Source of the DNA: an uncultured Bacilli bacterium
GTDB lineage: Bacteria > Bacillota_I > Bacilli_A > RF39 > UBA660
Assembly (NCBI GenBank): GCA_934096015.1
Contig: CAKOLD010000001.1
Span: 27,069 to 91,068, forward strand
DNA length: 64,000 bases
Reading direction: 5' to 3'
The stretch's first letter is position 1; every line of letters starts with the position of its first letter. Below are positions 5,065 through 44,625 of the stretch, piece by piece. The position numbers and the translations under genes are program-made. A model generated the notes under the pieces. That model worked only from the letters and a program-made list of their open reading frames with translations, made no database searches and was not told the DNA's origin.

Positions 5065-7162
5065 CTTTATCACCATCAACCAAAACAAAATCAATAGTAC
5101 GTGCTTCTTTACTAGCAGCGACACATTTAACAGTTACTTTATCACCAATTCTATAAGTTTTTTTTGTATTTTCCCCAACTAAACTTAATAAATTTTCCTC
5201 ATAATTATAATAATCGCCTTTCAGTGTGTTAACATGAACTAATCCTTCAACTAAATTATCAAGTTGTACAAAAAAGCCAAAATTAGTAACTGTGTCTATT
5301 ACACCATCATATATTTCGCCAATTTTATCTTCCATATATTCGGCCATCTTCATATCATCAACTTCTCTTTCGGCTTCAACACTTTTTTGCTCTCTTTCAC
5401 TAGCCTGTTCAGCAATTGTAACCAAATTTGTATCCCAATAATTTATCGTTTCTCTTGATAAATCGTGGTCAAAAAGATAAGTTCGTAGTAATCTATGCAC
5501 GATTAAATCAGGATATCTTCTGATTGGAGACGTAAAATGTGTATAACATGAACTAGCTAAACCAAAGTGACCTATATTTTCCTTTTGATAAATAGCCTTT
5601 TTCATACTACGTAAAAGCATACTGCTTAATATTTTATATTCTGGTTTATCACTTAACTCTTCTAATAGTCTTTGCATATCTTTAGGGCTTACTGAATTAT
5701 ATTTTCCTTTAATAGTATAGCCTAATAAACTAATTAATTTTAAAAACTGTTCTATTTTCTCACTACTTGGTTCTCCATGAGTCCTATAAATAAACGGTAA
5801 ATCCATATTAAAAATATGAGTAGCTACAGTTTCATTAGCAGCAATCATAAAATCTTCAATAAGTTTTTCTCCATCTTCTCTGACTCTTTTTTCAATAGCA
5901 ACAACTTTTTTATTCTTATCAACAATAATTTTTGGTTCATCCAAATCAAAATTAATGTATCCTTTTCTCTCTTTATGTTTTCTCAAAATATGAGCAAGTT
6001 CATTCATTTCTAATAAAGTATCCTTGTATTCTGTGTATTCAGGATCAACAATATTTCTCATCAATATATCATTTACTTTTGCATAAGTCATTTTAATTCT
6101 TGACTTAATAAATGAAGGAAAAATGTTATAATCAACGACGTCTCCCTTAGAATCTATTTTCATTTCACAACTTATAGTTAGTCTTACTTGATTTGGATTC
6201 AAAGAACATATCCCATTGGATAATTTATGTGGTAACATCGGAATAACACTATCAGCTAAATAACTGCTTGTTCCACGTGCTAAAGCATCTACATCCAGTG
6301 GACTATTCAAAGAAACATAATGGCTAACATCAGCAATATGAACCCCTAACCAATAAAAATCTTTTTCTTTTTTTATACTAATCGCATCATCTATATCTTT
6401 AGTATCAGCACCATCTATAGTAAATATCATTTCTTGAGTTAAATCTGTTCTTCCTACTTTTTCTTGTTCACTTACTTCATTAGGCATATCTTCTGCCTGT
6501 TGCATTGATTCTTTGCTAAACTCTTCAAATATTCCATATTTATACGCAACTGTTTTTATATCAACTCCAGGATCATCCTTGTGACCAATAACAGTAACTA
6601 CACGTCCATAATAACGATTTTTACTAAGTTCTTTAATCAAAGAAACTAAAACTTTAGTTCCATCAACTAAACCTCTAGAACTAACTTTATCTAAAACTAT
6701 TTCAAGATCCTTTTTTTCATCATCAAGTTTAATAAAAACATCATCATTTTTGTTAACAATTTCACCTATAATATTTTTTAAATTTCTATTTAAAATTCTA
6801 ACTACTCGACCTTCAGTTTTATTCTTTTTATTATTTAGTTCCACTAACACATAATCTTCATTTACTGCCCCATTCAAATCGTCTTTAGCAATATAAATAT
6901 CTTCTTCATCTGGTAAAACTAAAAAACCAAAACCTTTTTTATTAACATCTAGTTTTCCTAATTTAAAGTTAGGACAATTTTTATATAAAACATATTTTTC
7001 TTTATTAGTTTTATACATAACATTTTCTTTGTATAGTTCTTCCAAACTATTTTCTAAATCTTTTAATTCTTGAGGAGTTTTTAAGCCTAACAAATCATTT
7101 ATTTCAATCAAAGTCAAAGCTTCCTTTTCTTGTTCCATTACACTAATTATTTTATCCTTCAT
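5048..7162 (-). CDS. rnr: ribonuclease R
   Basis: 704 aa with an RNB catalytic region ([26 protein letters not shown]) and C-terminal S1-like and basic domains. Confidence 0.9.
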
Positions 7163-7232
7163 CTAAATTCCTCCATTTTTTTCATTATAACATAATATTT
7201 TTTTACAAATAAAAAAAGTGCTAAAGCACTCG

Positions 7233-7448
7233 TTAACTAATGTAAAGTATAAAAGCTATAATAATAAAAGCTGCACTCAAACACATTGTCAATCTTGTTA
7301 TAAAAAGTTCAGCGCCTCTTTCTTTTTGCCTTTGAAACAATTCTGTATTTCCACCTGTAATTATTTGTCCTCCAGCACTAGCTTTATTACTTTGTAACAA
7401 AACAAGAACAATTAAAATCACGGCAATTACTAATAATGCAGTCTCCAT
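7233..7448 (-). CDS. secG: preprotein translocase subunit SecG
   Basis: 71 aa with two TM segments and a central glycine-rich loop (ASAGGQIITGG). It is positioned upstream of rnr on the same strand, as in Bacilli. Confidence 0.7.
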   Translation of the reverse strand: METALLVIAVILIVLVLLQSNKASAGGQIITGGNTELFQRQKERGAELFITRLTMCLSAAFIIIAFILYIS

Positions 7449-7498
7449 AAACTCACCCTCCGTTTAAAAATCTACTTTATAATTTAACATAAAATTAA

Positions 7499-8710
7499 TT
7501 ATTTTTCAAGAAGTTCTTCAATTTCTAATAATCTATTATATTTAGCAACTCTTTCTCCTCTACAAAGTGATCCAGTTTTAATATATCCTAAATTTAAACC
7601 TACTGCCATATCTGCTATAAAAGTATCAAGAGTTTCACCACTTCTGTGACTTATAATAGTTTTAAAACCTGCGTTTTTAGCCATATCAATAGTTTCTAAC
7701 ATTTCACTAATAGTTCCAATTTGATTAGCTTTAAGTAATATTGAATTATTATAATGTTCGTGAATACCCTGATCTAATAATTTTTTATTAGTAACAAAAT
7801 AATCATCACCTACCAGCATAATTTTATTACCTGCCTTTTTTGTAAAGGATTTAATAGCATCTAAATCAAATTCAGAAAAAGCATCCTCAATACTACAAAT
7901 AGGATAATCATTTATTAAATCTAAATAATAATTTTCTAAATCCACATACTCTAAATACTTACCATCAATAAAATATTTTCCCTCTTTATAAAATTCGCTT
8001 GCTGCACAATCTAAAGCTATAAAAACATTTTCACCAGCTTTATAATTACTAACGTTAATCGCTTCAACTATTAAATCTAAAGCTTCTCTTGTAGATTTCA
8101 TTTTAGGAGCAAATCCCCCCTCGTCCCCTACATTAGTACTCATCCCTTTATTTTTTAAAATACCTTTTAAATTGTGAAAGATTTCAGCTCCAGCCTGTAG
8201 TGCAGACTTAAAAGAAGAAAATTTAGGAACTATCATAAATTCTTGAATAGACAAGCCACTTGCTGCATGAACACCACCATTAACAATATTCATCATAGGA
8301 ATAGGCATTGTAAAATCGTTCCCTAAACATTCAAAAAGTTCTCTGTGATTTTTTTGAGCTAATGCTTTCATAACACATAAAGAAACTCCTAAAATTGCAT
8401 TTGCCCCCAAATTTGATTTATTATCAGTTCCATCTAATTTTATTAAAATATCATCAATTTTTTTTTGGTCCAATTCTATTCCCTTTAAATTATCATTAAT
8501 TATTGTATTTACGTTATTAACAGCCTTTAAAACTCCTTTCCCATTATATCTATCTCCACCATCTCTTAATTCCAAAGCCTCATTAGATCCACAAGAAGCT
8601 CCAGAAGGAACACTTGAAACTACAAAGTTTCCATCATAAAATAATTTAACCTCAACAGTAGGATTACCTCTACTATCTAATATCTCTCTTGCATATACTT
8701 TTTCTATCAT
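7499..8710 (-). CDS. eno: enolase (phosphopyruvate hydratase)
   Basis: IEKVYAREILDSRGNPTVEV... is an enolase signature. The track ORF begins at an upstream TTG. The real ATG at 8708-8710 is preceded by an AGGAG RBS. Confidence 0.95.
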   Translation of the reverse strand: MIEKVYAREILDSRGNPTVEVKLFYDGNFVVSSVPSGASCGSNEALELRDGGDRYNGKGVLKAVNNVNTIINDNLKGIELDQKKIDDILIKLDGTDNKSNLGANAILGVSLCVMKALAQKNHRELFECLGNDFTMPIPMMNIVNGGVHAASGLSIQEFMIVPKFSSFKSALQAGAEIFHNLKGILKNKGMSTNVGDEGGFAPKMKSTREALDLIVEAINVSNYKAGENVFIALDCAASEFYKEGKYFIDGKYLEYVDLENYYLDLINDYPICSIEDAFSEFDLDAIKSFTKKAGNKIMLVGDDYFVTNKKLLDQGIHEHYNNSILLKANQIGTISEMLETIDMAKNAGFKTIISHRSGETLDTFIADMAVGLNLGYIKTGSLCRGERVAKYNRLLEIEELLEK

Positions 8711-12197: not shown

Positions 12198-14768
12198 ATG
12201 CTCAAAAAAATTGGTAATAATATTAAAAAAAATAAAGATATATATTTAACATTTCTAATTGGAATAGCTATTATTTCAATTATATATTTTTTACAAAAAA
12301 TTTCTCCATTCGGAGAAAATTCTACTTTAACAGTTGATTTTTATCATCAGTACGGCCCAATGTTAGCAGAATTATACAATAGAATAAATACAGGAAAAAA
12401 TCTCATATATTCCTTTACCATGTCTATGGGATTACCATTTTTTAGAAATTTTTTAAATTATTTGTCTAGTCCTTTCAACATTCTATTACTATTATTTAAA
12501 CATGAAAACTTGTTGACTGGATTTTCAATTATAATTGGTTTAAAAGCTGTAGTAGCTTCAACTACCATGAGCTACTTTTTAAAAAAGAAATTTAATTCAA
12601 AAACGCCAGTAATAATCGCTTTAGGTTTACTATATGGATTTAATGCATATTTTACTGCTTATTATTGGAATATAATGTGGCTTGATGGTTTAGTATTTCT
12701 ACCACTAATCACTAAAGGAATTGAAGATTTAATTGATGACGATAAAAATCTACTTTATATTTTAAGTCTAGCAACCATGATAATTGCTAATTATTTCATA
12801 GCATATATGATTTGTATATATAGTGTTATCTATTTTGCAATTTATTTATTTATTAACAAAAAAAATCTTAAGTATAAAAAAATAATAAAAAAAATATTTG
12901 TCTTTTGCCTTTCATCACTTTTAGCAGGTACTCTAACAGCTGTTTTAACACTACCACTTGCAAGTAGCTTAACCTCAACTAGTGCTACAAATGACACAAT
13001 GCCTTTTACAAGATATTATAATTTTAACTTACTAGAATTTTTAATCAGTCATTTATCTGGGTCCACAAAATCCGTATTTGCTTCTGATATTACAAATGCT
13101 CCTAATATATCTTGTGGAATAATTTGTTTAGCATTGCTAATTTTATTTTACACTAATCCAAAAATTCATATAAAAATTAAAATAGCTTACTTCATAATAC
13201 TAGGGATACTAATAGCAAGTTTTTTCTACGCACCTTTAGATTATATATGGCATGCTTTCCATGTCCCTAACGACTTACCCTATAGATTTTCATTTTTATA
13301 TTCTTTTACTTTACTAATTATATGTTCTTACTCACTTTTAAAAATTAAAGATAATAAAATTATTTTTGTATTTATTTCATATCTATTATGTTTAGGATTT
13401 TTAATATTTGTGAAAATTTTAGACACCGAACAAATAACTAATAATTTATTATTAATAAATATCATCCTAATTTCTATTTATTTTCTTATATACACAATTC
13501 ACCATTTTTATCCTAAAGTTCAAAAATTAATGTATATTATATTTATCCTAACAATATCACTGGAATGTATAATAAAAACTAATTCAAATTGGTCAATAGA
13601 TCAAAAAATAAGTGATTTTTATGATGATTATAATCAAACTCAAAATATTTTAAATTTTATAAAAGATAATAACAGTGATAACAATGAAAGTATATTCTAT
13701 AGAGTAGAAAAAACAAATATGTTAACCTTTAATGATTCTTCTTGGTACAACTATTATGGTATCACTTCATTTAGCTCAATGATCTATGAAAATTTGGCAA
13801 AAATGCAAAGAGATCTAGGAATGCCAGGGAATGAAATAAATAGTTTTTACTATAAACCAAATACGCCAATATATAATCTAATGTTTAATCTAAAATATAC
13901 ACTTGGAGATAATCACGATTACCTTCATTATAAAAACATTTTAATAAATAATAAAGAACCTATATATAAAACAAATTTTTATAACAATTTATTTTATGTT
14001 TCAAATCACAATATCAAAAACTGGAAATTAACTGAAAAAGATCCAATAAGAAATCAAAACAACTTTATAGAATATACAACAGGAATCAAAAACACATTCG
14101 AAAAAAAATCTGTAGAAAACAAAAATATAATAGAACAAAAAAATAATATAACATTAATAAAATATGAATTTGCTAACTCATTTACTAATAATTACATTTA
14201 TCTAAGTGATAATAATATTGATTTTTTCATAATTAATAATATTTTGTATACCACAAATGATAATCAAGAAAATTTAAATATTATTTTTCCACAATTATCT
14301 TACTATAACACCGTAGATTACACTGAAAAAAGACTTTTAACTTTTTACAGTGATGACGAAAATATAGAAGTTTACGTAGGATATAATTATTACCATAATA
14401 ATGATATAACACTTTATAACTTAAATGAATCTAAATTTTCTGATGCAGTAGCTAAATTATCTGACACAAAAATAAATATTATTAAATTTGCCGAATCAAA
14501 TATAATTTTAACTACAAACTTAAAAAAAGATGAAACAATATATTCATCAATACCATATGACAAAGGATGGGAAGTATACGTAAATTCTAAAAAAATAGAA
14601 ACTTATAAAATAGCAGATACATTATTAGGATTCGATATAAAACAAGGAAATCATACGATAGAATTAAAATATAAACCGCACAATTACAAATATGGTTTAA
14701 TAATAACATTAACATCAACAATTATTCTCTTTATCAGTCAATGGAAATGGAAAAGGAAATTGCAATAA
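12198..14768 (+). CDS. yfhO: YfhO-family polytopic membrane protein (putative glycosyltransferase of cell-envelope polymers)
   Basis: 856 aa with more than 10 TM helices. The N-terminus ...NSTLTVDFYHQYGPMLAEL is typical of YfhO. It has a large C-terminal extracytoplasmic domain. Confidence 0.7.
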   Translation: MLKKIGNNIKKNKDIYLTFLIGIAIISIIYFLQKISPFGENSTLTVDFYHQYGPMLAELYNRINTGKNLIYSFTMSMGLPFFRNFLNYLSSPFNILLLLFKHENLLTGFSIIIGLKAVVASTTMSYFLKKKFNSKTPVIIALGLLYGFNAYFTAYYWNIMWLDGLVFLPLITKGIEDLIDDDKNLLYILSLATMIIANYFIAYMICIYSVIYFAIYLFINKKNLKYKKIIKKIFVFCLSSLLAGTLTAVLTLPLASSLTSTSATNDTMPFTRYYNFNLLEFLISHLSGSTKSVFASDITNAPNISCGIICLALLILFYTNPKIHIKIKIAYFIILGILIASFFYAPLDYIWHAFHVPNDLPYRFSFLYSFTLLIICSYSLLKIKDNKIIFVFISYLLCLGFLIFVKILDTEQITNNLLLINIILISIYFLIYTIHHFYPKVQKLMYIIFILTISLECIIKTNSNWSIDQKISDFYDDYNQTQNILNFIKDNNSDNNESIFYRVEKTNMLTFNDSSWYNYYGITSFSSMIYENLAKMQRDLGMPGNEINSFYYKPNTPIYNLMFNLKYTLGDNHDYLHYKNILINNKEPIYKTNFYNNLFYVSNHNIKNWKLTEKDPIRNQNNFIEYTTGIKNTFEKKSVENKNIIEQKNNITLIKYEFANSFTNNYIYLSDNNIDFFIINNILYTTNDNQENLNIIFPQLSYYNTVDYTEKRLLTFYSDDENIEVYVGYNYYHNNDITLYNLNESKFSDAVAKLSDTKINIIKFAESNIILTTNLKKDETIYSSIPYDKGWEVYVNSKKIETYKIADTLLGFDIKQGNHTIELKYKPHNYKYGLIITLTSTIILFISQWKWKRKLQ

Positions 14769-15698
14769 TCAATTTCCTTCTTTTTTTACAAACAATTCAT
14801 CATTATATGTCGTCGGCATAAGAATTTCAAAATCATTAATAATAGAAACAGTATAATTTAACTTAGATCTATCCAATTTTTCACCATCTATACACCAACT
14901 TTTATCTGGATAATTAGCAAATTTTAATTTAATTTTATCAGTTTTATAAAATTCCAATCCAGAAACTTTATTAATATCATTTGTAGTTAATAATTTTAAA
15001 GTCCTAATAATATCAATTCTATTTCTAAAATTGCATAATAACACTTCAAATTCATTATCATCCAGTTTAACATCTTTATAAAAATTATTTATTCCAGCTA
15101 TTCTGTTAGCATTACTAATTAACATAAAAGAATAATAACCAGTTTTTTCAATTCCATTAATTTCATAAGTTAAATTATATAATTTTACCGGTTTAAAAAA
15201 ATCTTTTATACCCTCTATTAAATAAGCCAAATAGCCAATTTTCTTTTTTAAATATCTTGGAGTTTCATAAGCAACGGTTACAAATTTTCCCAATCCTGCA
15301 ACATATACAAATGGTCTATCATTTATAGAACATATATCAATTTTTTTAACTTCACCGTTTAAAGCAAGGAGTAAATTTTTTTGGAAATTTTTTGTATAAC
15401 CAAACATTTTTCCTACATCATTAGTAGTTCCAACGGGAATGTGGCATACAATTAATCTATCTTTTCTAAGCAAATTACCTGTTACAACTTCATTAAAAGT
15501 TCCATCTCCACCTATAGAAAAAACAACATCAACTTTATCTAAGTGACTTACTATTTCCTTAGCATGGCCAGCATATTTAGTAGGAATAAATTTTGGTAAA
15601 TAATTAAATTTACTCAAATATTTTTTACAAAGTTTTAAATTATCTTTATTTAAGGTGTGTCCGCTATTAGGGTTGTATATGACTACACATGTTTTCAT
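14769..15698 (-). CDS. dagK: diacylglycerol/lipid kinase (DagK/YegS family)
   Basis: MKTCVVIYNPNSG...GGDGTFNEVV is the DAGK catalytic motif. The start is taken at the internal Met with a GGTGAT RBS. Confidence 0.8.
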   Translation of the reverse strand: MKTCVVIYNPNSGHTLNKDNLKLCKKYLSKFNYLPKFIPTKYAGHAKEIVSHLDKVDVVFSIGGDGTFNEVVTGNLLRKDRLIVCHIPVGTTNDVGKMFGYTKNFQKNLLLALNGEVKKIDICSINDRPFVYVAGLGKFVTVAYETPRYLKKKIGYLAYLIEGIKDFFKPVKLYNLTYEINGIEKTGYYSFMLISNANRIAGINNFYKDVKLDDNEFEVLLCNFRNRIDIIRTLKLLTTNDINKVSGLEFYKTDKIKLKFANYPDKSWCIDGEKLDRSKLNYTVSIINDFEILMPTTYNDELFVKKEGN

Positions 15699-15775
15699 TT
15701 GTATCACCACGTAAATTATAAATTTCATTTTTTAATAAGTCAAACATTTTCGGTTAATAGCCGTAATCTTTTTAT

Positions 15776-16921
15776 TTGCAAAACATAAAATGTAAAGAAG
15801 GGAGTAAATCATTGAATAATTGTGATATAAGAAAAAATCCATCATGTTGTAATAATTTTCCTAATCCTCAAATAGGACCTACGGGACCTACAGGGCCTTT
15901 TGGACCAACAGGTCCTCAAGGTATTCAAGGCATTCAAGGTATTCCAGGAGAAACTGGACCTACGGGACCTCAAGGTATTCAAGGAATCCAGGGTATTCAA
16001 GGTATTCCGGGAGCTGTTGGAGCAACAGGACCTACGGGACCAACGGGACCTCAAGGAACTGCTGGAACTCAAGGAGTTACTGGTCCGACTGGACCTCAGG
16101 GAGAAACAGGACCTACGGGACCAACGGGACCTCAAGGAACTGCTGGAACTCAAGGAGCTACTGGTCCGACTGGACCTCAGGGAGAAACAGGACCAACGGG
16201 GCCAACAGGTCCTCAAGGAATAACCGGAACTCAAGGAGTCACCGGTCCGACTGGGCCTACGGGGCCAACGGGCCCAACAGGCCCTGCTGGAACTGCAGAT
16301 ACCATAAGTATAGGAAATGTAGAAACTGGAGACGCAGGAACTGCAGCACAAATAACAGACACTGGAAGTGGAACTAATCACATTTTAAATTTTGTGATTC
16401 CTAAAGGCACTACTGAAACTACACAACGTAATGCCTACCTGGTTACATTTAATGAAAACAATCAAAATCCAATAGATGTATTAAGCAACAACAAAATTCC
16501 ACTTACAAAAAAAGAAATAGATATAACAAATATAGTAACTCTAGACCCAACAGATAATACAATTCAATTTAATGTTCCGGGGTACTATCAAATCAATTTT
16601 ACTGCTTTTGCATATGCAAGTGATAATGGAAGAGATTTTGATCAAACAAAAGATTTTGTATCTATCGGATTAAGAACGGCTGGTACAGACGACATATATG
16701 TTGGTGCTAGTAAATGGACAAATTCAACAATAGCCACTGAAATAACGGGCCAAGGAATAATTTCAGTACCAGATATTTCTACTCCATTTGAATTAGTAAA
16801 CTTAAGCCCTAGTACTATTCACTTAACAAGTCCAGATATGAATTATATTAAATCAAGTTCATATTTTACAAACCCACTAGTAACTATTACAATTGAATAC
16901 TTAGGAAGACAAAATATATAA
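15776..16921 (+). CDS. BclA-like collagen-triple-helix repeat protein (exosporium/surface glycoprotein candidate)
   Basis: The N-terminal region is followed by about 150 residues of G-X-Y repeats dominated by GPT/GPQ/GIQ triplets. The C-terminal domain of about 200 aa is non-collagenous and beta-rich. The likely start is the TTG at 15812, downstream of a GAAGGGAG RBS. Confidence 0.7.
16028..16207 (+). repeat. tandem 90-nt direct duplication inside the collagen-like region (30-aa unit [16 protein letters not shown](V/A)[13 protein letters not shown])
   Basis: Two near-identical 90-nt units with 1-2 mismatches can be read directly at 16028-16117 and 16118-16207. Confidence 0.8.
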
Positions 16922-16965
16922 AAGAGTTTTTAACTCTTTTTTAAAATAAAGAAAGGAAATTTTAA

Positions 16966-18036
16966 ATGAAAATATGTGTTTACGCCATCGCTAAAAATGA
17001 AGAACAATTTGTTGATAGATGGTACAACTCAATGAAGGAAGCAGATGAAATATATGTACTTGATACAGGTTCCACAGATAATACGGTTAAATTATTAAAA
17101 GATAAAGGAGTAATTGTAAAAATTAAAGAAATAAATCCTTGGAGATTCGATACTGCCAGAATTGAATCTTTAAAAATGGTTCCTGAAAATACCGATTTAT
17201 GTGTATGTACTGATTTAGATGAAATATTTCGTCCTGGTTGGAGAAAAGAATTAGAAAAATTGTACACAGGAAAAACAAGAGTAAGATATAATTACAATTG
17301 GAGTTTAAAAAATAATAAACCATTAGTAAATTTTTATTTAGATAACATTCATGTAAGAAAAGGATATACATGGACTCACCCAGTTCACGAGGTATTAACA
17401 AACACGGCCGACAATGAAACATTTGACACAATTCCAACTATAATATTAGATCATTACCCTGATTCAAAAAAATCAAGAAAATCATATTTAAAATTACTTG
17501 AATTATCCGTTAAAGAAGATCCTGAAGATGACAGAAATATGCATTACTTGGGAAGAGAATACATGTATTATCAAAAATATGATAAATGTATTAAAACTTT
17601 AAAAAAACATTTAAACCTTGAAAGTTCTAAGTGGAAAGATGAAAGAAGTGCTTCGATGAGATTTATTGCTAGAAGTTATATAGCTAAAAATAAAAACAAT
17701 CTAGCTATAAAATGGTACCAAAAAGCAATCAACGAAACACCATACTTAAGAGAGCCATTAATTGAACTAGCAATGTTATATTATAATGAAAAAAAATATT
17801 ATGAGATGCTAGATCTACTAATCAAAGCCAAAACAATTAAAAATAAAAACAAAACTTATATTAATGAACCATTTGCTTGGGATTCCACTTTAGATGATTT
17901 ATTAAGTCTAGCATATTATTACTTAGGACTATATGAAGAAAGCATTTTTTATATAAATAAAGCCTTAAAAATCGATCCTAATAATGAAAGACTTAAAGAA
18001 AATAAAAAAATATTTTTAAACTCTCAAAATCAATAA
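16966..18036 (+). CDS. family-2 glycosyltransferase with C-terminal TPR repeats
   Basis: N-terminus ICVYAIAKNEEQFVDRWYNSMKEADEIYVLDTGSTDNTV is a GT2 (GT-A fold) motif. C-terminal TPR-like repeats include YLGREYMYYQKYDKCIKTL and AIKWYQKAIN. It lies directly downstream of the collagen-like gene. Confidence 0.7.
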   Translation: MKICVYAIAKNEEQFVDRWYNSMKEADEIYVLDTGSTDNTVKLLKDKGVIVKIKEINPWRFDTARIESLKMVPENTDLCVCTDLDEIFRPGWRKELEKLYTGKTRVRYNYNWSLKNNKPLVNFYLDNIHVRKGYTWTHPVHEVLTNTADNETFDTIPTIILDHYPDSKKSRKSYLKLLELSVKEDPEDDRNMHYLGREYMYYQKYDKCIKTLKKHLNLESSKWKDERSASMRFIARSYIAKNKNNLAIKWYQKAINETPYLREPLIELAMLYYNEKKYYEMLDLLIKAKTIKNKNKTYINEPFAWDSTLDDLLSLAYYYLGLYEESIFYINKALKIDPNNERLKENKKIFLNSQNQ

Positions 18037-18246: not shown

Positions 18247-18321
18247 GGGTCTATAGCCAAGTGGTAAGGCATGGGACTGCAACTCCCTGATTCGTTGGTT
18301 CAAATCCGACTAGGCCCTCCA
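18247..18321 (+). tRNA. tRNA-Cys (anticodon GCA)
   Basis: Acceptor stem GGGTCTA/TAGGCCC, discriminator T and encoded CCA. D-loop AGCCAAGTGGTAAGGC. Anticodon loop CTGCAAC. T-arm GGTTCAAATCC. Confidence 0.85.
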
Positions 18322-18332
18322 TAAATAAATTA

Positions 18333-18360
18333 AACTCGAATACTCGAGTTTTTTTTATTA
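18333..18360 (+). terminator. hairpin plus T-run downstream of tRNA-Cys
   Basis: aaactcgaatactcgag followed by tttttttt. Confidence 0.4.
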
Positions 18361-21920: not shown

Positions 21921-22273
21921 TGGTGGAGCCGAGCGGAATCGAACCGCTGTCCAAAATAACTTCAAAATAACGTCTACAGGTTTAGTTAGAATTAAAATTT
22001 CATTAATAAAAAAGTATCTAACAAACTATTTATTAACTAAGTTTATAAATTATTCATTTTTTAATCTAAACAAATTAAAAAATATATCTTGTATATATGA
22101 ACCAAATATTAATCTACAAGAAAACCAATATTCAGCGCCAAAATTGCTAAATTAAGCAAATGCTAAGGCAGTATTATAATTATTGTCAGTTAATTTAAAC
22201 TGTGCTACTTAGGATTAGCTACCACCTGCAATTAAATCAAAACATTATTCTGTCGAAACCAATAAACGGCCCC
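21921..22273 (-). ncRNA. ssrA: tmRNA (ssrA), about 353 nt
   Basis: Minus strand 5' end is GGGGCCGUUUAUUGGUUUCGACAG. The 3' end GGUUCGAUUCCGCUCGGCUCCACCA gives a tRNA-Ala-like acceptor/T-arm. The internal tag reading frame GCA CAG UUU AAA UUA ACU GAC AAU AAU UAU AAU ACU GCC UUA GCA UUU GCU UAA gives the tag AQFKLTDNNYNTALAFA. Confidence 0.85.
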
Positions 22274-22645: not shown

Positions 22646-22900
22646 TCAATTATTTTTGTTGAATTTTACAGAAAATTTTACATAAGATTCTCCAAATACA
22701 AAACCTATTATTAACAAAATTTTATTATAAATATGAATATCAGCATAATTAAATTTATAAAAACAAAAAACAAATAATAAAGTAATTACCAAAAAATAAC
22801 CAATTTTTAAAAAAATTTTTTTTCTTCTCAGAAGACGATATATTATTCCGCAAACAAGGCCATAAAAAAATGAAAATAATAAATAAGCAAATTGCGTCAT
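22646..22900 (-). CDS. yabQ: YabQ-like small membrane protein (spore cortex biogenesis)
   Basis: 84 aa with about 3 TM helices. Positioned between the yabP and divIC homologs. Confidence 0.45.
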   Translation of the reverse strand: MTQFAYLLFSFFYGLVCGIIYRLLRRKKIFLKIGYFLVITLLFVFCFYKFNYADIHIYNKILLIIGFVFGESYVKFSVKFNKNN

Positions 22901-23184
22901 TATTTAAATAATTTACTAAATACAGATGATTCTTTTATACTATCTGAATCTAAATAATTTATCATATTAATTTTACCTTTTATTGAAACATTTCCTTCTA
23001 AAGTATCTAATTTTATCATTTCTAATGATTCTCCTTTTATTATCATCAATCCCATAGTTGTATCTAAAGAAAATTCTTTATCATCAAAATTATTAATTTT
23101 TTTTACTCCAGATAAAACTATATTTTTTCTTTCATTTATTTTTACAACATGATTAAAGTTTCCTACATCCATTATTTTATCCAT
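22900..23184 (-). CDS. yabP: sporulation protein YabP
   Basis: The motif VLSGVKKINNFDDKEFSLDTTMGLMIIKGESLEMIKLDTLEGNVSIKG resembles the YabP family. Its start overlaps the yabQ stop. Confidence 0.65.
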   Translation of the reverse strand: MDKIMDVGNFNHVVKINERKNIVLSGVKKINNFDDKEFSLDTTMGLMIIKGESLEMIKLDTLEGNVSIKGKINMINYLDSDSIKESSVFSKLFK

Positions 23185-23249
23185 AAATAGTCCTCCTATT
23201 AAAGTATATTATTATATAAAAAAAAAATTCGTTAATTATAACGAATAAT

Positions 23250-23531
23250 TTATTCAGAATCTTTTTTATTATATTCTTCAAATATTGCATCTTCAAACAT
23301 TTTACGTGCATCTGGATTTATAGGATGAACGATATCTCTATATTCTCCAACTGGTGTTTTCTTGCTTGGCATTGCAATAAATAAACCATTATCTCCTTCA
23401 ATAATTCTAATATCATGTACTGCAAAAGATTCATCTAAAACTACAGATGCAATCCCTTTCATACGTGATCCTTCCTTGTCATACTTACGAACAATTACAG
23501 ATGTAATTTTCATAACACTCACTCCTCTCAA
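23250..23531 (-). CDS. spoVG: septation/stage V sporulation protein G
   Basis: MKITSVIVRKYDKEGSRMKGIASVVLDESFAVHDIRIIEGDNGLFIAMPS is a classic SpoVG sequence. Confidence 0.9.
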   Translation of the reverse strand: MRGVSVMKITSVIVRKYDKEGSRMKGIASVVLDESFAVHDIRIIEGDNGLFIAMPSKKTPVGEYRDIVHPINPDARKMFEDAIFEEYNKKDSE

Positions 23532-23577
23532 GTTTATCTAAATTAATTTTACATAAAATATAATTAAAAATCAAGTG

Positions 23578-23787
23578 TTAAATATAATATAGTGAAATAT
23601 CTTTAATTAACACTTCTGAAAAAGAAAAACTTTTAGTTTCTACTCCATCAGATACAGTAAATATATTGGGATATATACCATTAATTATCCCAACAAAAAC
23701 ATCAGATTTATTTCGACAACATTTGGTTACTACTTTTACTCTTTTACCAAGATTTTCTTTCATATCATTTCTTATATCTTCTATCAT
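23578..23787 (-). CDS. veg: Veg protein (biofilm/stationary-phase small protein)
   Basis: IEDIRNDMKENLGKRVKVV...GRNKS..VGII.G.YPNIF.V resembles the Veg family. 69 aa. Confidence 0.75.
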   Translation of the reverse strand: MIEDIRNDMKENLGKRVKVVTKCCRNKSDVFVGIINGIYPNIFTVSDGVETKSFSFSEVLIKDISLYYI

Positions 23788-24554
23788 GATCTCGGATAGC
23801 CCACATACATCATTCCATTAGATTTTAAGCCACCCATACCATCCTTTCCATATTTAGTTTTTTCTAACATTTCAATTAAATTAACTTCCTTATTTTTTTC
23901 AGTTAATGCAACTGTAACTGCAATAATTGCAGGATCTAATGCATGAATATTAATCCTTTTAGGACTTGAAGCATAATTAGCACCACTTTTTATCAATTCT
24001 TCATAATCACTCTGGCAAGCTCCTGCTATAACTACTAACTTTTCATGACTCTTCTCATAAATTCTGGCATTTTTTACAGACTTAACAAAATTTAAACTAT
24101 TTTTATAATTTGTAATGTCATCCACATCACCTTTTTTTCTATAATATGCATCATGACCAGTAATAATAACTATATCAGGGTGATATTGTTCTAAATAATT
24201 TATTATTTTACTAGGTAGCTCAGACTCCTTAATTGCTTTGCCAACAGCCATAACACCTGCCTTTTTATAAAATTCTAAGCACCTATTCAAATATTCTTTA
24301 TCACCATCAAAATGTAAAATTTTAGCTGGCAAATAAAAATAATCGTCCCTTTCAGAATATAAATCAACTATTTCAAACTCATCTTCTTTTCTTTCATAAT
24401 CTACAAGCTCCAAATCAGTTAAAAAACTATCTGCAAATAAGCGAACATCTACACCTTTTAAATAATAAATATTATTTTTTATATTAATTACTTTAAATAC
24501 AGTATCATTATTGTAACTATTTCTAGTTACGTAATCTCCCTTTTTTATTTCCAT
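23784..24554 (-). CDS. yabG: sporulation-specific protease YabG (peptidase U57)
   Basis: IKKGDYVTRNSYNNDTVFKVINI...YHPDIVIITGHDAYY matches YabG. Conserved position ksgA-yabG-veg. Confidence 0.75.
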   Translation of the reverse strand: MEIKKGDYVTRNSYNNDTVFKVINIKNNIYYLKGVDVRLFADSFLTDLELVDYERKEDEFEIVDLYSERDDYFYLPAKILHFDGDKEYLNRCLEFYKKAGVMAVGKAIKESELPSKIINYLEQYHPDIVIITGHDAYYRKKGDVDDITNYKNSLNFVKSVKNARIYEKSHEKLVVIAGACQSDYEELIKSGANYASSPKRINIHALDPAIIAVTVALTEKNKEVNLIEMLEKTKYGKDGMGGLKSNGMMYVGYPRS

Positions 24555-25978: not shown

Positions 25979-26761
25979 TCATAACCCAATTTCTATGTCA
26001 AAAATTTCCTTAACATTTTTATTAGTAATTCTTGCTATTTCATCTAAAGAAACGTCAAATAAATTCGCTAAAAATAAAGCAATTATTTTTATGTTTTTTG
26101 GACTATTTTGAGAACCACGATAAGGAACTGGTGCTAAAAAAGGTGAATCAGTTTCTAACACCAAGTGTTCTAAACCTACTTTCTTTATAACATCTTTAAG
26201 ATTACAGTTTTTAAAAGTTATTACTCCATTAATTCCAAGTTTATAACCCATTTTTACGTACAACATAGCTGTTTCGTAACTGCCATTAAAACAATGAATA
26301 ACTCCTTTAAGATTATATTTTTTTAATATATTTATAGTATCCTGTGTTGCTTCTCTAGAATGTATTACCACAGGATAATTATATTTTTGAGCCAAGTCTA
26401 ATTGATACTCAAATAACTTTATTTGTTCTTTTTTATTATTTTTATCATGATAATAATCTAAACCAATTTCACCTATAGCAATTATTTTACTAGTACTTAT
26501 ATTTTTAATAATGTTGTCTAAAACACTATAATCTTCAAAAACATTATCAGGATGAATTCCAAGACACCCATATATATTTTCATAAGTTTCTGATAATTTT
26601 AAAACTTCTCCAATAGAACTTATATTATCTGATGCAACAAAAAATTTATTAACATCATTTTTAAAAGCTTCAAACAAAACCGGTTCTAAATTATTATAAT
26701 ATTCATTATATAGATGACAATGAGTATCAATAAATTTATAATTCATACTATTCATTTTCAA
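25979..26761 (-). CDS. tatD: TatD-family metal-dependent DNase/hydrolase
   Basis: FIDTHCHLY...GEIGLDY...VIHSR... are TatD motifs. Immediately downstream of metG, as with B. subtilis yabD. Confidence 0.85.
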   Translation of the reverse strand: MKMNSMNYKFIDTHCHLYNEYYNNLEPVLFEAFKNDVNKFFVASDNISSIGEVLKLSETYENIYGCLGIHPDNVFEDYSVLDNIIKNISTSKIIAIGEIGLDYYHDKNNKKEQIKLFEYQLDLAQKYNYPVVIHSREATQDTINILKKYNLKGVIHCFNGSYETAMLYVKMGYKLGINGVITFKNCNLKDVIKKVGLEHLVLETDSPFLAPVPYRGSQNSPKNIKIIALFLANLFDVSLDEIARITNKNVKEIFDIEIGL

Positions 26762-27080
26762 TTCTCTGAAATAAAATTTCTGGCTTTTTCAAAAGTGTAC
26801 CTGATTTATAATTACCAAATTCTTTTGCACTATCGTATGTTTTTAAATTACAATTTATTAAATCAAAAATTTTCTCAGCAGTATCTGGCAAAAAAGGTTG
26901 TAAATATACCGTACATATTCTAATTGATTCAATAAGATTGTACAATACAGTTTTTAATCTATCCGCCATATTTTCATCTTTTGCCAACAGCCAAGGAGTT
27001 GTTTCATCTATATATTTATTACAGCTTCTTAAGCAAAAAAATACTTCATCAATTGCTTCAGAAATTTTTAATTTATCCAT
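26748..27080 (-). CDS. metG: methionyl-tRNA synthetase, C-terminal anticodon-binding fragment (separated from the catalytic part by an in-frame TAA)
   Basis: SCNKYIDETTPWLLAKDEN aligns to the MetRS anticodon-binding helix bundle. It is in the same frame as 27126..28280. Confidence 0.65.
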   Translation of the reverse strand: MDKLKISEAIDEVFFCLRSCNKYIDETTPWLLAKDENMADRLKTVLYNLIESIRICTVYLQPFLPDTAEKIFDLINCNLKTYDSAKEFGNYKSGTLLKKPEILFQRIENE

Positions 27081-27125
27081 TTTGTTTTTAAAATGATTAG
27101 GTAACTCTAAAATTTTACATTTTAA

Positions 27126-28280
27126 TTATTCATCAATAGGTAAAGAAACATTTTTATTTTCTACAATCCCATCAAAATATTTATAACTCATTGAGATAGT
27201 TCTATTAACCAAATTTCCCAATATATTTGCTAAATCAGAATTATTTCTTTCTATTATCAAATCTTCTGTAATAACTCCATCATCTGCAAAAGGAATTTCA
27301 TGAAGTACAAAATATCTTATAGTATCTACCCCATATTTATTAACCAACTCATCAGCATACAAAATATTTCCTTTACTTTTGCTCATTTTGTCACCACCAG
27401 AAAGTAACCACGGATGTCCAAAAACTTGTTTAGGTAAAGGTAAATCCAAAGCCATTAAAATTATTGGCCAATAAATAGTATGAAATCTAATAATATCTTT
27501 ACCAATTAAATGTAAATCCGCAGGCCATAATTTTTTGAATTCATCAGTAATAGAATCAGTATCATATCCAATATTAGTAATATAATTAGTAAGCGCATCT
27601 AACCAAACATAGATAATATGTTTTTTATCAAAAGTTACTGGGATCCCCCATTTAAAAGAAGTTCTAGATACACATAAATCTTGCAAACCAGGTTTTAAAA
27701 AATTATTAATCATTTCGTTCTTTCTTGATTCTGGTTGTATAAATTCATTGTGATTTTCAATATATTCAATTAACCTGTCTTGATACTTTGATAATTTAAA
27801 AAAATAAGCTTCTTCACTCTTTTTACTTACATCACGTCCACAATCAGGGCATTTACCATTAATTAATTGAGTTTCTGTAAAAAATGATTCACAAGGAACA
27901 CAATACCATCCTTCATATTTTGATAAATAAATATCTCCTTGTTCATATAATTTATTAAATATTTTTTGAACTTTTTCTTCATGTTGTTTATCAGTAGTCC
28001 TAACAAAACGATTATAAGTTGTATTCATTAAATCCCAAATATTCTTAATTTCATCAGCAACTTTATCCACATATGTTTGTGGTGTTACACCAGCTTCTTT
28101 TGCTTTTAATTCAATTTTTTCTCCATGTTCATCAGTACCAGTCTGAAAATAAACGTCATATCCTTCTAATCTCTTATTTCTTGCTATAGCATCTGCCAAA
28201 ACTATTTCATATGTATTACCAATATGTGGTTTACTAGATGTATAAGCTATTGCAGTAGAAATATAATATTTTTCTTTCAT
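27126..28280 (-). CDS. metG: methionyl-tRNA synthetase, catalytic N-terminal portion (HIGH and KMSKS motifs)
   Basis: PHIGNTYEIVLADAIAR is the HIGH region. Zn knuckle CPDCG. KMSKSKGN. It ends with TAA at 27126-27128, 15 codons before the in-frame downstream fragment. Confidence 0.85.
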   Translation of the reverse strand: MKEKYYISTAIAYTSSKPHIGNTYEIVLADAIARNKRLEGYDVYFQTGTDEHGEKIELKAKEAGVTPQTYVDKVADEIKNIWDLMNTTYNRFVRTTDKQHEEKVQKIFNKLYEQGDIYLSKYEGWYCVPCESFFTETQLINGKCPDCGRDVSKKSEEAYFFKLSKYQDRLIEYIENHNEFIQPESRKNEMINNFLKPGLQDLCVSRTSFKWGIPVTFDKKHIIYVWLDALTNYITNIGYDTDSITDEFKKLWPADLHLIGKDIIRFHTIYWPIILMALDLPLPKQVFGHPWLLSGGDKMSKSKGNILYADELVNKYGVDTIRYFVLHEIPFADDGVITEDLIIERNNSDLANILGNLVNRTISMSYKYFDGIVENKNVSLPIDE

Positions 28281-28283
28281 TTA

Positions 28284-28530
28284 AATTTCTCCTTCCATAA
28301 TAAAAAACATGAACAAAAGGACGAAAAAATTCCGCGATACCACCTTTATTCATGTTTTAGCATGCTCTCAAATTTTTAACGCAATTAACGATTTAAACTC
28401 CAGAACCATGTTCATTGTTTTTTTATAATTCTCTTTCACCATTTAAGAACTCTCTAAATATAAAGCCACAATTACTCTTTCCTTCTTCGTCTAACAAGTG
28501 TATTCTAACATAATATTATTTTTTATACAA
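28284..28530 (-). promoter_or_regulatory. T-box riboswitch leader (Met specifier) upstream of metG
   Basis: Minus-strand T-box sequence AAAGGUGGUAUCGCGGAA (plus 28330-28348). Intrinsic terminator ACAUGAAUAAAGG...CCUUUUGUUCAUGU plus U-run overlaps the antiterminator. AG-box GAAAGAGUA. Candidate specifier AUG-A in CAAUGAACAUGG. Confidence 0.7.
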
Positions 28531-28532
28531 CA

Positions 28533-29039
28533 TTAATTTACTAACAAATTTAATACATTCGACAATAACAAATGAACATCAGTTGTTAAAATTTCTTTTA
28601 CCCTAATCATTATTAAACCTAACACACAACCGTCATCAATAACGCATTTAACATACACTTTACCACTTAAAAAATAATCTTCACAAATATCTATACCACT
28701 AGGATAATCCTCAGACTTATATTCCTTTGCCAATTCAATTAACACATTTGAAACTTTTTTATTAATAATTGATTTATCAATTCCGTCACTGCAAGCTACA
28801 ATTTTCTCTTCACTTACAAATATTAAATCATAATCTGATATATGCTCAAATAAATCTATTAACTCTCTCATTTTATTTATATCTAATAAATTCTTACTTT
28901 TAGTTATAATTAAATTGCCATTTTCCAGTTTCATATCTAAAAGTTCGCCAGAGTTAAAATTTAATTTATTTCTAAATTCTTTAGGAATAACTATTCTACC
29001 TAAATCATCTATATGACGTCTAAAACTAAAATGCATCAT
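28533..29039 (-). CDS. spoVT: SpoVT/AbrB-family transcriptional regulator (stage V sporulation protein T-like)
   Basis: N-terminus RRHIDDLGRIVIPKEFRNKLNFNSGELLDMKLENGNLIITK is a swapped-hairpin AbrB domain. A roughly 120 aa GAF-like C-terminal domain follows. It lies next to mfd, as in B. subtilis. Confidence 0.75.
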   Translation of the reverse strand: MMHFSFRRHIDDLGRIVIPKEFRNKLNFNSGELLDMKLENGNLIITKSKNLLDINKMRELIDLFEHISDYDLIFVSEEKIVACSDGIDKSIINKKVSNVLIELAKEYKSEDYPSGIDICEDYFLSGKVYVKCVIDDGCVLGLIMIRVKEILTTDVHLLLSNVLNLLVN

Positions 29040-44163: not shown

Positions 44164-44625
44164 TCATTTTTCTCCTCTTCTTTTTCTTAAAACATATTCC
44201 AATCTATTAGCTTTTAATATTTGATTATTTAAAACATTGTAACTTAAAGAAAATTCCAAACTTTCTTCATTTAAAAACTGTACAATACTTTTATTTTGGT
44301 CTTTATCAAAATAATATTTATCTATATTATTCAAACTTATCCAAGCACACTGTTTTAAACGAGGAGAAGTTGTTGGAAAAAAGACAATAGGATTATTTTC
44401 CTCTACTATTATGGGAGCTTTATAACTAATTCCAATTAAAGAATCTGTTCCTTTTATTCTTCCATTCATAGAACTTCCATAATATTTACAATTAAAATCC
44501 ATTATCTTATTTGGTTTACTATCAACCAAAAAGCAATCATCCTCTTCATATACTAAAGACTTTTTTTCTCCACATGGAATTATAGCCAATGTTTTTTTTG
44601 AAATAGAATAATTTTTCATATTCAC
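44164..44625 (-). CDS. comK: ComK-family protein (competence transcription factor homolog)
   Basis: LAIIPCGEKKSLVYEEDDCFLVDSKPNKIMDFNCKYYGSSMNGRIKGTDSLIGISYKAPIIVEENNPIVFFPTTSPRLKQCAWISLNNI aligns along its length with B. subtilis ComK (AVLPEEIDGK..CSKIIEKDCVFYV...SCRFFGSSYAGRKAGTYEVTKISHKPPIMVDPSNQIFLFPTLSSTRPQCGWISHVHV). Confidence 0.7.
   Translation of the reverse strand: MNMKNYSISKKTLAIIPCGEKKSLVYEEDDCFLVDSKPNKIMDFNCKYYGSSMNGRIKGTDSLIGISYKAPIIVEENNPIVFFPTTSPRLKQCAWISLNNIDKYYFDKDQNKSIVQFLNEESLEFSLSYNVLNNQILKANRLEYVLRKRRGEK

Follow-up and report, generated by a model that had tools for sequence, protein, structure and literature searches.

Among the closest described systems is the SgtA–BclA3 pair of C. 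difficile. SgtA, a 358-aa enzyme with a GT-A domain (residues 3–225) and four TPR repeats (residues 262–358), is encoded immediately upstream of bclA3, and in vitro it transfers N-acetylglucosamine (GlcNAc) in β-O linkage from UDP-GlcNAc, with Mn2+, onto Thr/Ser residues of GPT/GAT collagen peptides (PMC7157674). Expression of bclA1–3 depends on σK, for which the C. difficile consensus is AC / CATATAAT (PMC3789822). In Bacillus, the exosporium-targeting leader is a conserved Pro-rich motif that binds ExsFA/BxpB (PMC12357932), and a covalent attachment to the L-ENA fibre, an endospore appendage (ENA), has been proposed for the C13C14 motif of L-BclA (PMC11362473). In both C. difficile and B. 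anthracis, adhesion, transmission and immune recognition depend on the outer nap. The ability of the uncultured gut Bacilli considered here to sporulate has been predicted from genomes only (PMC10868615). Here, we describe a locus in a 64,000-nt stretch of DNA (the window) from an uncultured Bacilli bacterium (contig CAKOLD010000001.1), in which the gene for a collagen-like protein (15812..16921, + strand) is followed by a gene for an SgtA-like protein glycosyltransferase (16966..18036, + strand). We consider it probable that these two genes form a cassette for a glycosylated spore-surface filament. Numbering throughout refers to positions in the window, and L-numbers (L001, L004, etc.) denote loci retrieved for comparison.

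The Collagen-Like Gene and Its Repeats

The mechanical open reading frame (ORF) in the ORF list covers 15776..16921 (+) and encodes 381 aa; an exact look-up of this 381-aa form gave no match. To judge from the sequence, the start codon is most likely TTG 15812 and not the ORF start at 15776, because this TTG lies 7 nt behind a ribosome-binding site, GAAGGGAG (15797..15804, +, read from the sequence), and was chosen by independent gene calls on three other conspecific assemblies. The resulting protein of 369 aa consists of a Cys-rich N-terminus of 21 aa with a CC pair and no signal peptide (15812..15874, +), a collagen-like region of 141 aa (15875..16297, +), a linker β module of 43 aa ending in NFVIPKG (16298..16426, +) and a C-terminal head of 164 aa ending in EYLGRQNI (16427..16918, +). 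The collagen-like region is an unbroken run of 47 G-X-Y triplets that matches Pfam Collagen with E 1.3e-22, and it is dominated by GPT (16), GPQ (7) and GIQ (5), together with GET, GTA and GTQ (three each). It contains 30 Thr residues, and 24 of the 47 triplets have Thr in the Y position. The length of the stalk is predicted to be ≈40 nm. Because Gly and Pro codons require it, the G + C content of this region is 57%, compared to 26% for the window. A preliminary description of the locus, made from the sequence, had recognized both the GPT/GPQ/GIQ region and the β-rich non-collagen domain behind it, and on both points it was right.

The same description had placed a perfect 90-nt tandem duplication at 16028–16207. 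This duplication was rejected, as only 53 of the 90 positions are identical at that period. The true period is 81 nt: Tandem Repeats Finder and a period scan showed three tandem units of 81 nt (27 aa, nine triplets) at 16024..16266 (+). The first two units (16024–16104 and 16105–16185) are identical at 80 of 81 positions, the sole difference, at 16077/16158, changing Val to Ala, while the third (16186–16266) is identical at 64 of 81 (≈79%). Since other in-phase offsets reach only 58–83% identity, the near-identical pair (99%) reflects a recent duplication and not a compositional effect.

That the locus varies in length, in the manner of a variable number tandem repeat (VNTR), was supported when repeat numbers were compared across strains. 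Seven conspecific assemblies from different samples were reached via the exact enzyme sequence and near-identical variants, and these differ in steps of the 81-nt unit. The protein has 369 aa (47 triplets) in three of them, including the window, and 318 aa (30 triplets), 345 aa (39 triplets), 372 aa (48 triplets) and 396 aa (56 triplets) in one each; all are short-read assemblies, and two assemblies break within the repeats. The differences consist of whole 27-aa units and single triplets. On either side of the collagen-like region there is almost no variation: the 21-aa N-terminus is identical in all seven assemblies, and the 207-aa C-terminal part differs by ≤3 residues. With 0.286 nm for each residue, these lengths would correspond to stalks of ≈26 to 48 nm. 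The position of the cassette is unchanged in all conspecific assemblies.

Predicted Structure of the C-Terminal Domain

The head was modelled as a monomer by AlphaFold2 from an alignment of 54 sequences, with a predicted local distance difference test (pLDDT) score of 90.7. The model is a C1q/TNF-like jelly roll, the fold that the preliminary description had proposed to look for. When the model was compared to the PDB with Foldseek, the top match was F-BclA (9h38), the tip fibrillum head of the Bacillus thuringiensis F-ENA (E 8e-9, template modelling (TM) score 0.8 on target), followed by the BclA structures 1wck, 2r6q and 2z5w (TM ≈ 0.78–0.80, normalized to target). EDA, C1q-like proteins, TNF-family proteins and ExsFA were found further down. 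Thus, BclA-family heads are the closest solved structures to a confidently predicted model.

At the level of sequence, membership in the BclA_C family was considered and rejected. The head scored 17.3 and 19.2 bits against Pfam BclA_C (PF18573), for which the cut-off is 38, and six of 12 relatives matched weakly; a head-only profile found no match among PDB sequences; and hhalign against the heads of two collagen paralogues in L004, which themselves score 43.3 and 29 bits with BclA_C (cut-off 38), returned a probability of 7.8%. An earlier profile match to 1wck (E 5e-7) drew much of its score from collagen columns. The term “BclA-like” used in the preliminary description is therefore apt for the fold, the GPT-rich collagen and the length variation, but not for the sequence of the head, which lies outside Pfam BclA_C, nor for the N-terminus, which has no exosporium leader.

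With the non-collagen part as query, 77 relatives were found, mostly 40–59% identical and all but two from metagenomes. A phmmer search of 1.84 billion cluster representatives gave 180 at E ≤ 1e-3, and among the matches listed the alignment extends to or almost to the C-terminus. By these sequence comparisons, the head is a separate small family with a predicted C1q-like fold, distinct from BclA_C. The linker, which forms three strands in the AlphaFold2 model, recurs in paralogues (proteins of L004 and L045) and in phage fibre proteins. In one species (L007, 7825–8630), two ORFs take the place of a single family gene, one of 56 aa comprising the N-terminus and a collagen stub and one of 209 aa with linker and head, which is likely to represent a frameshift or a decaying copy; no glycosyltransferase gene of the type described below adjoins it.

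The Glycosyltransferase and the Conserved Gene Pair

The product of the downstream gene has 356 aa, and Pfam identified Glycos_transf_2 in its N-terminal and TPR repeats in its C-terminal part, confirming the earlier reading of this gene as a GT2 glycosyltransferase fused to TPR (GT2-TPR). In the AlphaFold2 model (pLDDT 93.6), the GT-A domain comprises residues ≈1–170 and the TPR-like helical domain residues ≈172–355. The top Foldseek matches, over the whole length, were the peptide S-glycosyltransferases ThuS and SunS (E 8e-15), and weak sequence matches were found to ThuS and GmaR. SunS and ThuS S-glycosylate Cys residues of small bacteriocin precursors, while GmaR modifies flagellin. Across 33 homologues, the motifs DTGSTD, D83-x-D85-E86 and HPVHE do not vary, and the catalytic DxD is intact.

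For direct comparison with SgtA, the C. difficile locus (L048, CP134690) was retrieved via the published N-terminal peptides of BclA3 (PMC7157674). BLASTP aligned residues 1–356 of the window enzyme with residues 2–358 of SgtA (L048:4846–5922) at 25% identity (E 6e-20). On this evidence, the two enzymes are distant homologues with the same architecture, not established orthologues. The preliminary description had called the enzyme the expected partner of a spore-surface collagen, and its full-length homology to the O-GlcNAc transferase of BclA3 is in line with that expectation. In L048 itself (6001–8065), which belongs to a complete genome, bclA3 is called as a 77-aa fragment and a 428-aa ORF in another frame, with the frameshift inside the collagen repeats; the strain may truly differ here, or the assembly may be wrong.

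The distribution of the pair was determined by a scan of one genome per species, using the trimmed head alignment as query. The head family was found in 24 genomes, nearly all from uncultured, low-GC bacteria of the human gut, whose records are titled “uncultured Bacilli”, “uncultured Tenericutes”, “Clostridium sp. CAG:762”, “CAG:302” and the like; one record bears the title Bacteroidaceae bacterium (L032). A GT2-TPR gene lies directly downstream of the family gene in 11 of the 24, its product 55–67% identical to the window enzyme (tblastn; ten full-length and one partial). The cassette is also present in L001–3 and L045–46, and across all these loci the flanks are unrelated. In most relatives only 8–11 nt separate the two genes, while the gap in the window is 44 nt; between the genes here, there is a weak hairpin, rich in AT, with a run of U behind it (16920..16940, +). 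We considered this hairpin as a possible leaky terminator; its folding energy was not significant (centroid −6.5 kcal/mol, z −1.1), and the assignment was rejected. The genes that flank the cassette in the window, YfhO and a lipid kinase, occur in none of the other family loci, and the conserved unit is therefore the gene pair. They were accordingly rejected as parts of the system, being kept within the species only.

We also approached the association from the side of the enzyme, by inspecting three GT2-TPR homologues located on long contigs. One abuts a head-family gene (L045), one lies near a collagen-only gene (L044) and one stands alone (L042, 5001–6077). In L044 (2940–6083), the collagen-only gene encodes 257 aa and is situated 1.3 kb upstream of the GT2-TPR gene, with a Sua5 gene in three ORFs between them. 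On a high-GC faecal contig (L047), a GT2-TPR gene with a 47%-identical product follows a collagen-like gene whose end domains are unrelated. This contig (MT838491.1) is of human faecal origin and was deposited under the name “UNVERIFIED: Bacteriophage sp.”; it has the collagen-like gene, the GT2-TPR gene and ordinary metabolic-looking ORFs at 119–2162, and may be bacterial rather than viral. The common denominator of these pairings is the collagen repeat, as would be expected if the repeat were the acceptor. The enzyme family, with >7,800 homologues, is far larger than the head family (≈180 clusters), so that an exclusive pairing is not implied.

Promoter Motif and Sporulation Genes

In an unbiased comparison of 4-mers, CATA was the most enriched between −36 and −18 upstream of family genes, being present in 18 of 19 regions and in 16 of 169 background regions, the latter being other upstream regions taken from the same loci. 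CATAnnnT at −31 to −24 was found in 16 of the 19 family genes vs. seven of the 169 background regions. The motif CATAnnnTA is of mother-cell sigma type and lies ≈27 nt upstream of the family genes, and in nine of their upstream regions AC is present 16–17 nt further upstream. As far as sequence can tell, this motif matches the σK-type consensus reported for C. difficile. The window has a putative −10 element of a mother-cell (σK/σE-type) promoter, CATAAAATG (15784..15792, +), 28 nt upstream of the start codon. It is the weaker match, since AC is missing at −35 and the element ends in TG instead of TA. No σ70-like promoter was found on the + strand upstream of the gene, in a scan that was at chance level overall. 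The stand-alone GT2-TPR genes in L042 and L044 are preceded by CATATATTA at ≈25–28 nt, the same distance as the family motif.

The window is a segment of the chromosome near the replication origin. The dnaA, dnaN, recF, gyrB and gyrA genes lie at 38.6–47.3 kb, followed beyond this cluster by rnpA, yidC, jag, mnmE, mnmG, rsmG and parB, and the cassette is ≈30 kb from dnaA. Between them, at 22.3–24.6 kb, is a Bacillus-like block, yabG-veg-spoVG-yabP-yabQ-divIC (22646–24554, − strand), and next to mfd there is a SpoVT-like gene with an AbrB domain (28533–29039, − strand). YabG (289 bits) and YabP (89 bits) both score above the NCBIfam equivalog cut-offs, and YabQ and the SpoVT-like gene score below them. 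All four of these genes (yabG, yabP, yabQ and the SpoVT-like gene) lie 5–12 kb from the cassette, and the earlier statement that other sporulation genes are at hand holds for YabG and YabP. By their sequences, the yab block and the SpoVT-like gene indicate a lineage that is sporulation-capable, or was so recently.

In the gut MAG of one relative (L004), the family gene has a Coat_F gene on one side and two collagen genes on the other, and one of these two is above the Pfam BclA_C threshold. The order in L004 (7147–16011) is Coat_F, the family gene, an unknown of 624 aa, the two BclA_C-type collagen genes (43.3 and 29 bits) and unknowns of 582, 114 and 181 aa. This region looks like a spore-surface gene island.

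The N-Terminus and a Proposed Mechanism

No signal peptide, hydrophobic signal sequence, LPXTG or other anchor could be read from the sequence of the collagen-like protein. A search of the 21-aa N-terminus for an exosporium targeting motif, which the preliminary description had suggested, revealed none of Bacillus type. What the N-terminus does have is three cysteines (C4, C12 and C13), the last two forming the CC pair. In relatives, the consensus Y-x-K-I-x-x-K-I...C-[RK]-P-x-C(C) stands directly ahead of GPTGP, and the window protein has retained the cysteines only. C. difficile BclA3 has the sequence CDCHHCCPPSC ahead of its collagen region, at the same place as the CC of the window protein. 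Because Cys motifs occupy the same place in BclA3 and L-BclA, disulfide anchoring of the base is plausible and, by analogy with these proteins, a reasonable inference.

In the mechanism that we propose, the 369-aa protein would trimerize via its C1q/TNF-like head, and the head trimer would nucleate a collagen triple helix of ≈40 nm, so that the head is presented at the distal end. The Cys-rich N-terminus (C4, C12, C13) would fix the base to the outermost spore layer, probably by disulfides. In the mother cell, the σK/σE-type promoter would drive transcription of the collagen-like gene, either jointly with the downstream GT-A + TPR gene or shortly before it. The TPR domain of the enzyme would then bind the repeat region, and the enzyme, with the aid of a divalent metal, would use a UDP-sugar to O-glycosylate Thr residues of GPT/GAT/GET triplets. 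The analogy with SgtA suggests GlcNAc as this sugar. Slippage or recombination among the 81-nt units would alter the length of the stalk between strains.

Evaluation of Alternative Explanations

The interpretation of the cassette as serving an exosporium or other spore-surface filament, put forward in the preliminary description, is supported by the head fold, the length variation, the homology to SgtA and the sporulation genes in the window. Several observations weigh against it. The protein has no Bacillus-type exosporium leader, and its head fails by Pfam BclA_C, by the head-only PDB profile and by hhalign (7.8%) alike. The promoter of the window gene, CATAAAATG, matches weakly, with AC absent at −35; the upstream regions behind the motif counts are related by descent, so that their independence is overstated; and some of the relatives' regions can be read as σA-like as well (TTTACA-17-TATTTT). 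The length variants come from short-read metagenome assemblies, which are able to collapse repeats. GT2-TPR homologues exist in thousands, often not beside any collagen gene, and 13 of the 24 family genes have no adjoining GT2-TPR. Finally, C1q-like heads of phage and giant-virus collagen proteins fit the model as well as BclA does (E 4e-9). Because the fold fits viral heads equally, the assignment to the spore rests on the genomic context and the promoter motif.

The viral matches raise the question of whether the locus is a collagen-like tail fibre with its glycosyltransferase, derived from a phage or prophage and unrelated to sporulation. Besides the heads, PHROG tail-fibre families match the protein (phrog_5073, E 1e-41, and others), and the GT2-TPR matches phrog_13126 (E 1e-113) and is 27–42% identical to jumbo-phage homologues. 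However, the matches to the protein are carried by collagen and linker; the head-part query matches weakly, at residues 2–41 only, and the head has no tblastn match in 50,697 phage records. There is no phage gene near the cassette, whose neighbours are YfhO, the lipid kinase, tRNA-Cys and housekeeping genes, and it occupies the same position in every conspecific assembly. The relatives' cassettes are found in diverse chromosomal contexts, none with adjoining phage genes (in L045, a phage-integrase-family gene lies ≈4 kb upstream), and have the mother-cell-type promoter motif conserved upstream. Prophage origin was rejected on account of the chromosomal context and the lack of phage matches to the head, and we regard a phage fibre as very improbable. 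Equally hard to credit is the idea that the protein serves vegetative cells as a collagen-like surface adhesin of Scl/Lcl type. NCBIfam SclB, Lcl and SclA do match the collagen region (E 1e-20 to 3e-26), but with 75–92 bits, compared to cut-offs of 325–500, and over collagen repeats only, and the protein has neither signal peptide nor LPXTG or other anchor. Related uncultured orders have been reported to be without sortases (PMC10868615).

Two further explanations, both of which we consider improbable, would leave the cassette associated with sporulation. If the base docks by disulfides, then the protein could be the tip fibrillum (“ruffle”) of an endospore appendage instead of a nap filament, its CC motif forming a covalent link to a pilus-like ENA fibre in the way suggested for L-BclA. 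The best solved structural match is indeed the tip fibrillum F-BclA of an F-ENA. Like the window protein with its C12C13, both L-BclA and a candidate ruffle protein of S-ENA lack an exosporium leader and have a Cys-rich N-terminus with a CC motif (PMC11362473, PMC12357932). However, no ENA subunit (DUF3992, DUF4183) was detected among the ORFs scanned with Pfam, which included neighbours from L001, L004 and L045 as well as ORFs of the window, and the protein lacks the hook motif of F-ENA (two hydrophobic residues and one further residue ahead of P-F). The CC motif does not discriminate between nap and appendage, because the nap protein BclA3 of C. difficile has it too. The other explanation concerns the pairing: the GT2-TPR might be a general sporulation glycosyltransferase acting mainly on other substrates, with the collagen protein unmodified or modified by another enzyme. 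The disproportion between the two families, the stand-alone GT2-TPR genes in L042 and L044 and the 13 unpaired family genes would be expected from such a loose association. Against this, the pair recurs at a spacing of 8–11 nt in many species with unrelated flanks, the association extends to collagen genes that differ in their end domains (the one in L047 and the collagen-only gene of L044), and the characterized homologue SgtA acts on just such GPT/GAT repeats. A glycosylated spore-surface filament is thus the explanation that we favour.

Neighbouring Genes and Other Features of the Window

The genes directly upstream of the cassette encode a YfhO/PgfM-like GT-C membrane glycosyltransferase (12198–14768, +) and a lipid kinase of the diacylglycerol kinase (DAGK) type (14769–15728, −). 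They are probably unrelated to it and concerned with glycosylation of teichoic-acid type. Just downstream of the cassette is a tRNA-Cys gene (18247–18321, +), followed by a bidirectional terminator-like hairpin (18332–18351). The gene for transfer-messenger RNA (21921–22273, −) encodes the tag peptide DNNYNTALAFA. The gene for methionyl-tRNA synthetase (26748–28280, −), which has a T-box leader (28314–28496), is interrupted by one in-frame TAA (27126–27128) and reads as a catalytic ORF of 384 aa and an anticodon-domain ORF of 110 aa; a pseudogene, an error in the assembly and an enzyme that is genuinely split are all conceivable. The dnaA-dnaN-recF-gyrB-gyrA cluster at the origin is canonical except for a ComK-family gene (44164–44625, −; Pfam E 3e-40) that separates dnaN from recF.

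Implications

An intact, strain-variable cassette of BclA3/SgtA type, a mother-cell-type promoter and the yabG/yabP/yabQ genes argue for a glycosylated outer nap in this lineage. A bolder proposal, which we consider unlikely, is that the head family, the C-x-P-x-CC N-terminus and the SgtA-like enzyme belong to a novel type of structure on the spore surface, of which they make the glycosylated hair or the tip fibre, with a disulfide-locked base and a head that constitutes a previously undescribed C1q-like family. Differences in length between strains, together with those in the head, would then adjust the adhesion or clustering of spores or host recognition, and gut lineages that have never been cultured would produce decorated, transmissible spores. 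The cassette reveals no new principle. What it offers for use is a compact new family of C1q-like heads, a distant and, by its sequence, probably active relative of SgtA for the glycoengineering of collagen-like peptides, and an 81-nt VNTR for strain typing in metagenomes.

Comparison with Known Systems

The collagen-like fibres of phages and giant viruses resemble the window protein in their collagen repeats, small β linker module and C1q-like head fold, but the window head has no sequence match in phage genomes, and its context is chromosomal and linked to sporulation. SunS, ThuS and the Listeria enzyme GmaR share with the window enzyme a GT-A domain followed by a C-terminal helical, TPR-like substrate-binding domain, and they act on peptide or protein acceptors. 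They are, however, only 17–18% identical to it, and the known systems are not linked to collagen-like genes.

The ENA tip fibrillae L-BclA and F-BclA combine a collagen stalk with a C1q-like head and, like the window protein, have no exosporium leader. F-BclA is the best structural match, and L-BclA has the N-terminal CC motif. In contrast, no ENA subunit genes were found near the window cassette, the F-ENA hook motif is absent, and the stalk has 141 residues compared to 273–701. The BclA protein of B. anthracis and B. cereus has the same three-part architecture, with GPT-rich collagen and a head of C1q/TNF-like fold, which is trimeric in BclA. The length of its collagen region likewise varies by strain, and, by analogy, O-glycosylation is expected for the window protein as well. 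The differences lie in the head, which in the window has 164 aa vs. ≈135 and is below the Pfam BclA_C threshold, in the lack of an ExsFA/BxpB-binding leader and of a rhamnose or anthrose operon, and in the partner enzyme, which is of SgtA type.

The closest parallel is with SgtA–BclA3 of C. difficile. In both cases, adjoining genes encode a Thr-rich GPT/GAT collagen-like protein and a GT-A + TPR enzyme of ≈357 aa, the two enzymes can be aligned throughout, and a Cys-rich CC motif is situated just ahead of the collagen region. The σK dependence of bclA3 fits the promoter motif of the window family. The order of the genes is reversed, however, with sgtA upstream of bclA3 and the enzyme gene downstream in the window. 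The enzymes share only 25% identity, the heads have no detectable sequence similarity, the N-terminus of the window protein has 21 aa compared to ≈45, its collagen region is shorter, and its host belongs to an uncultured, low-GC lineage of Bacilli. The locus is thus a BclA3/SgtA-like cassette and not a member of the BclA_C family, set apart by a head family of its own, the reversed gene order and a minimal, Cys-rich N-terminus.

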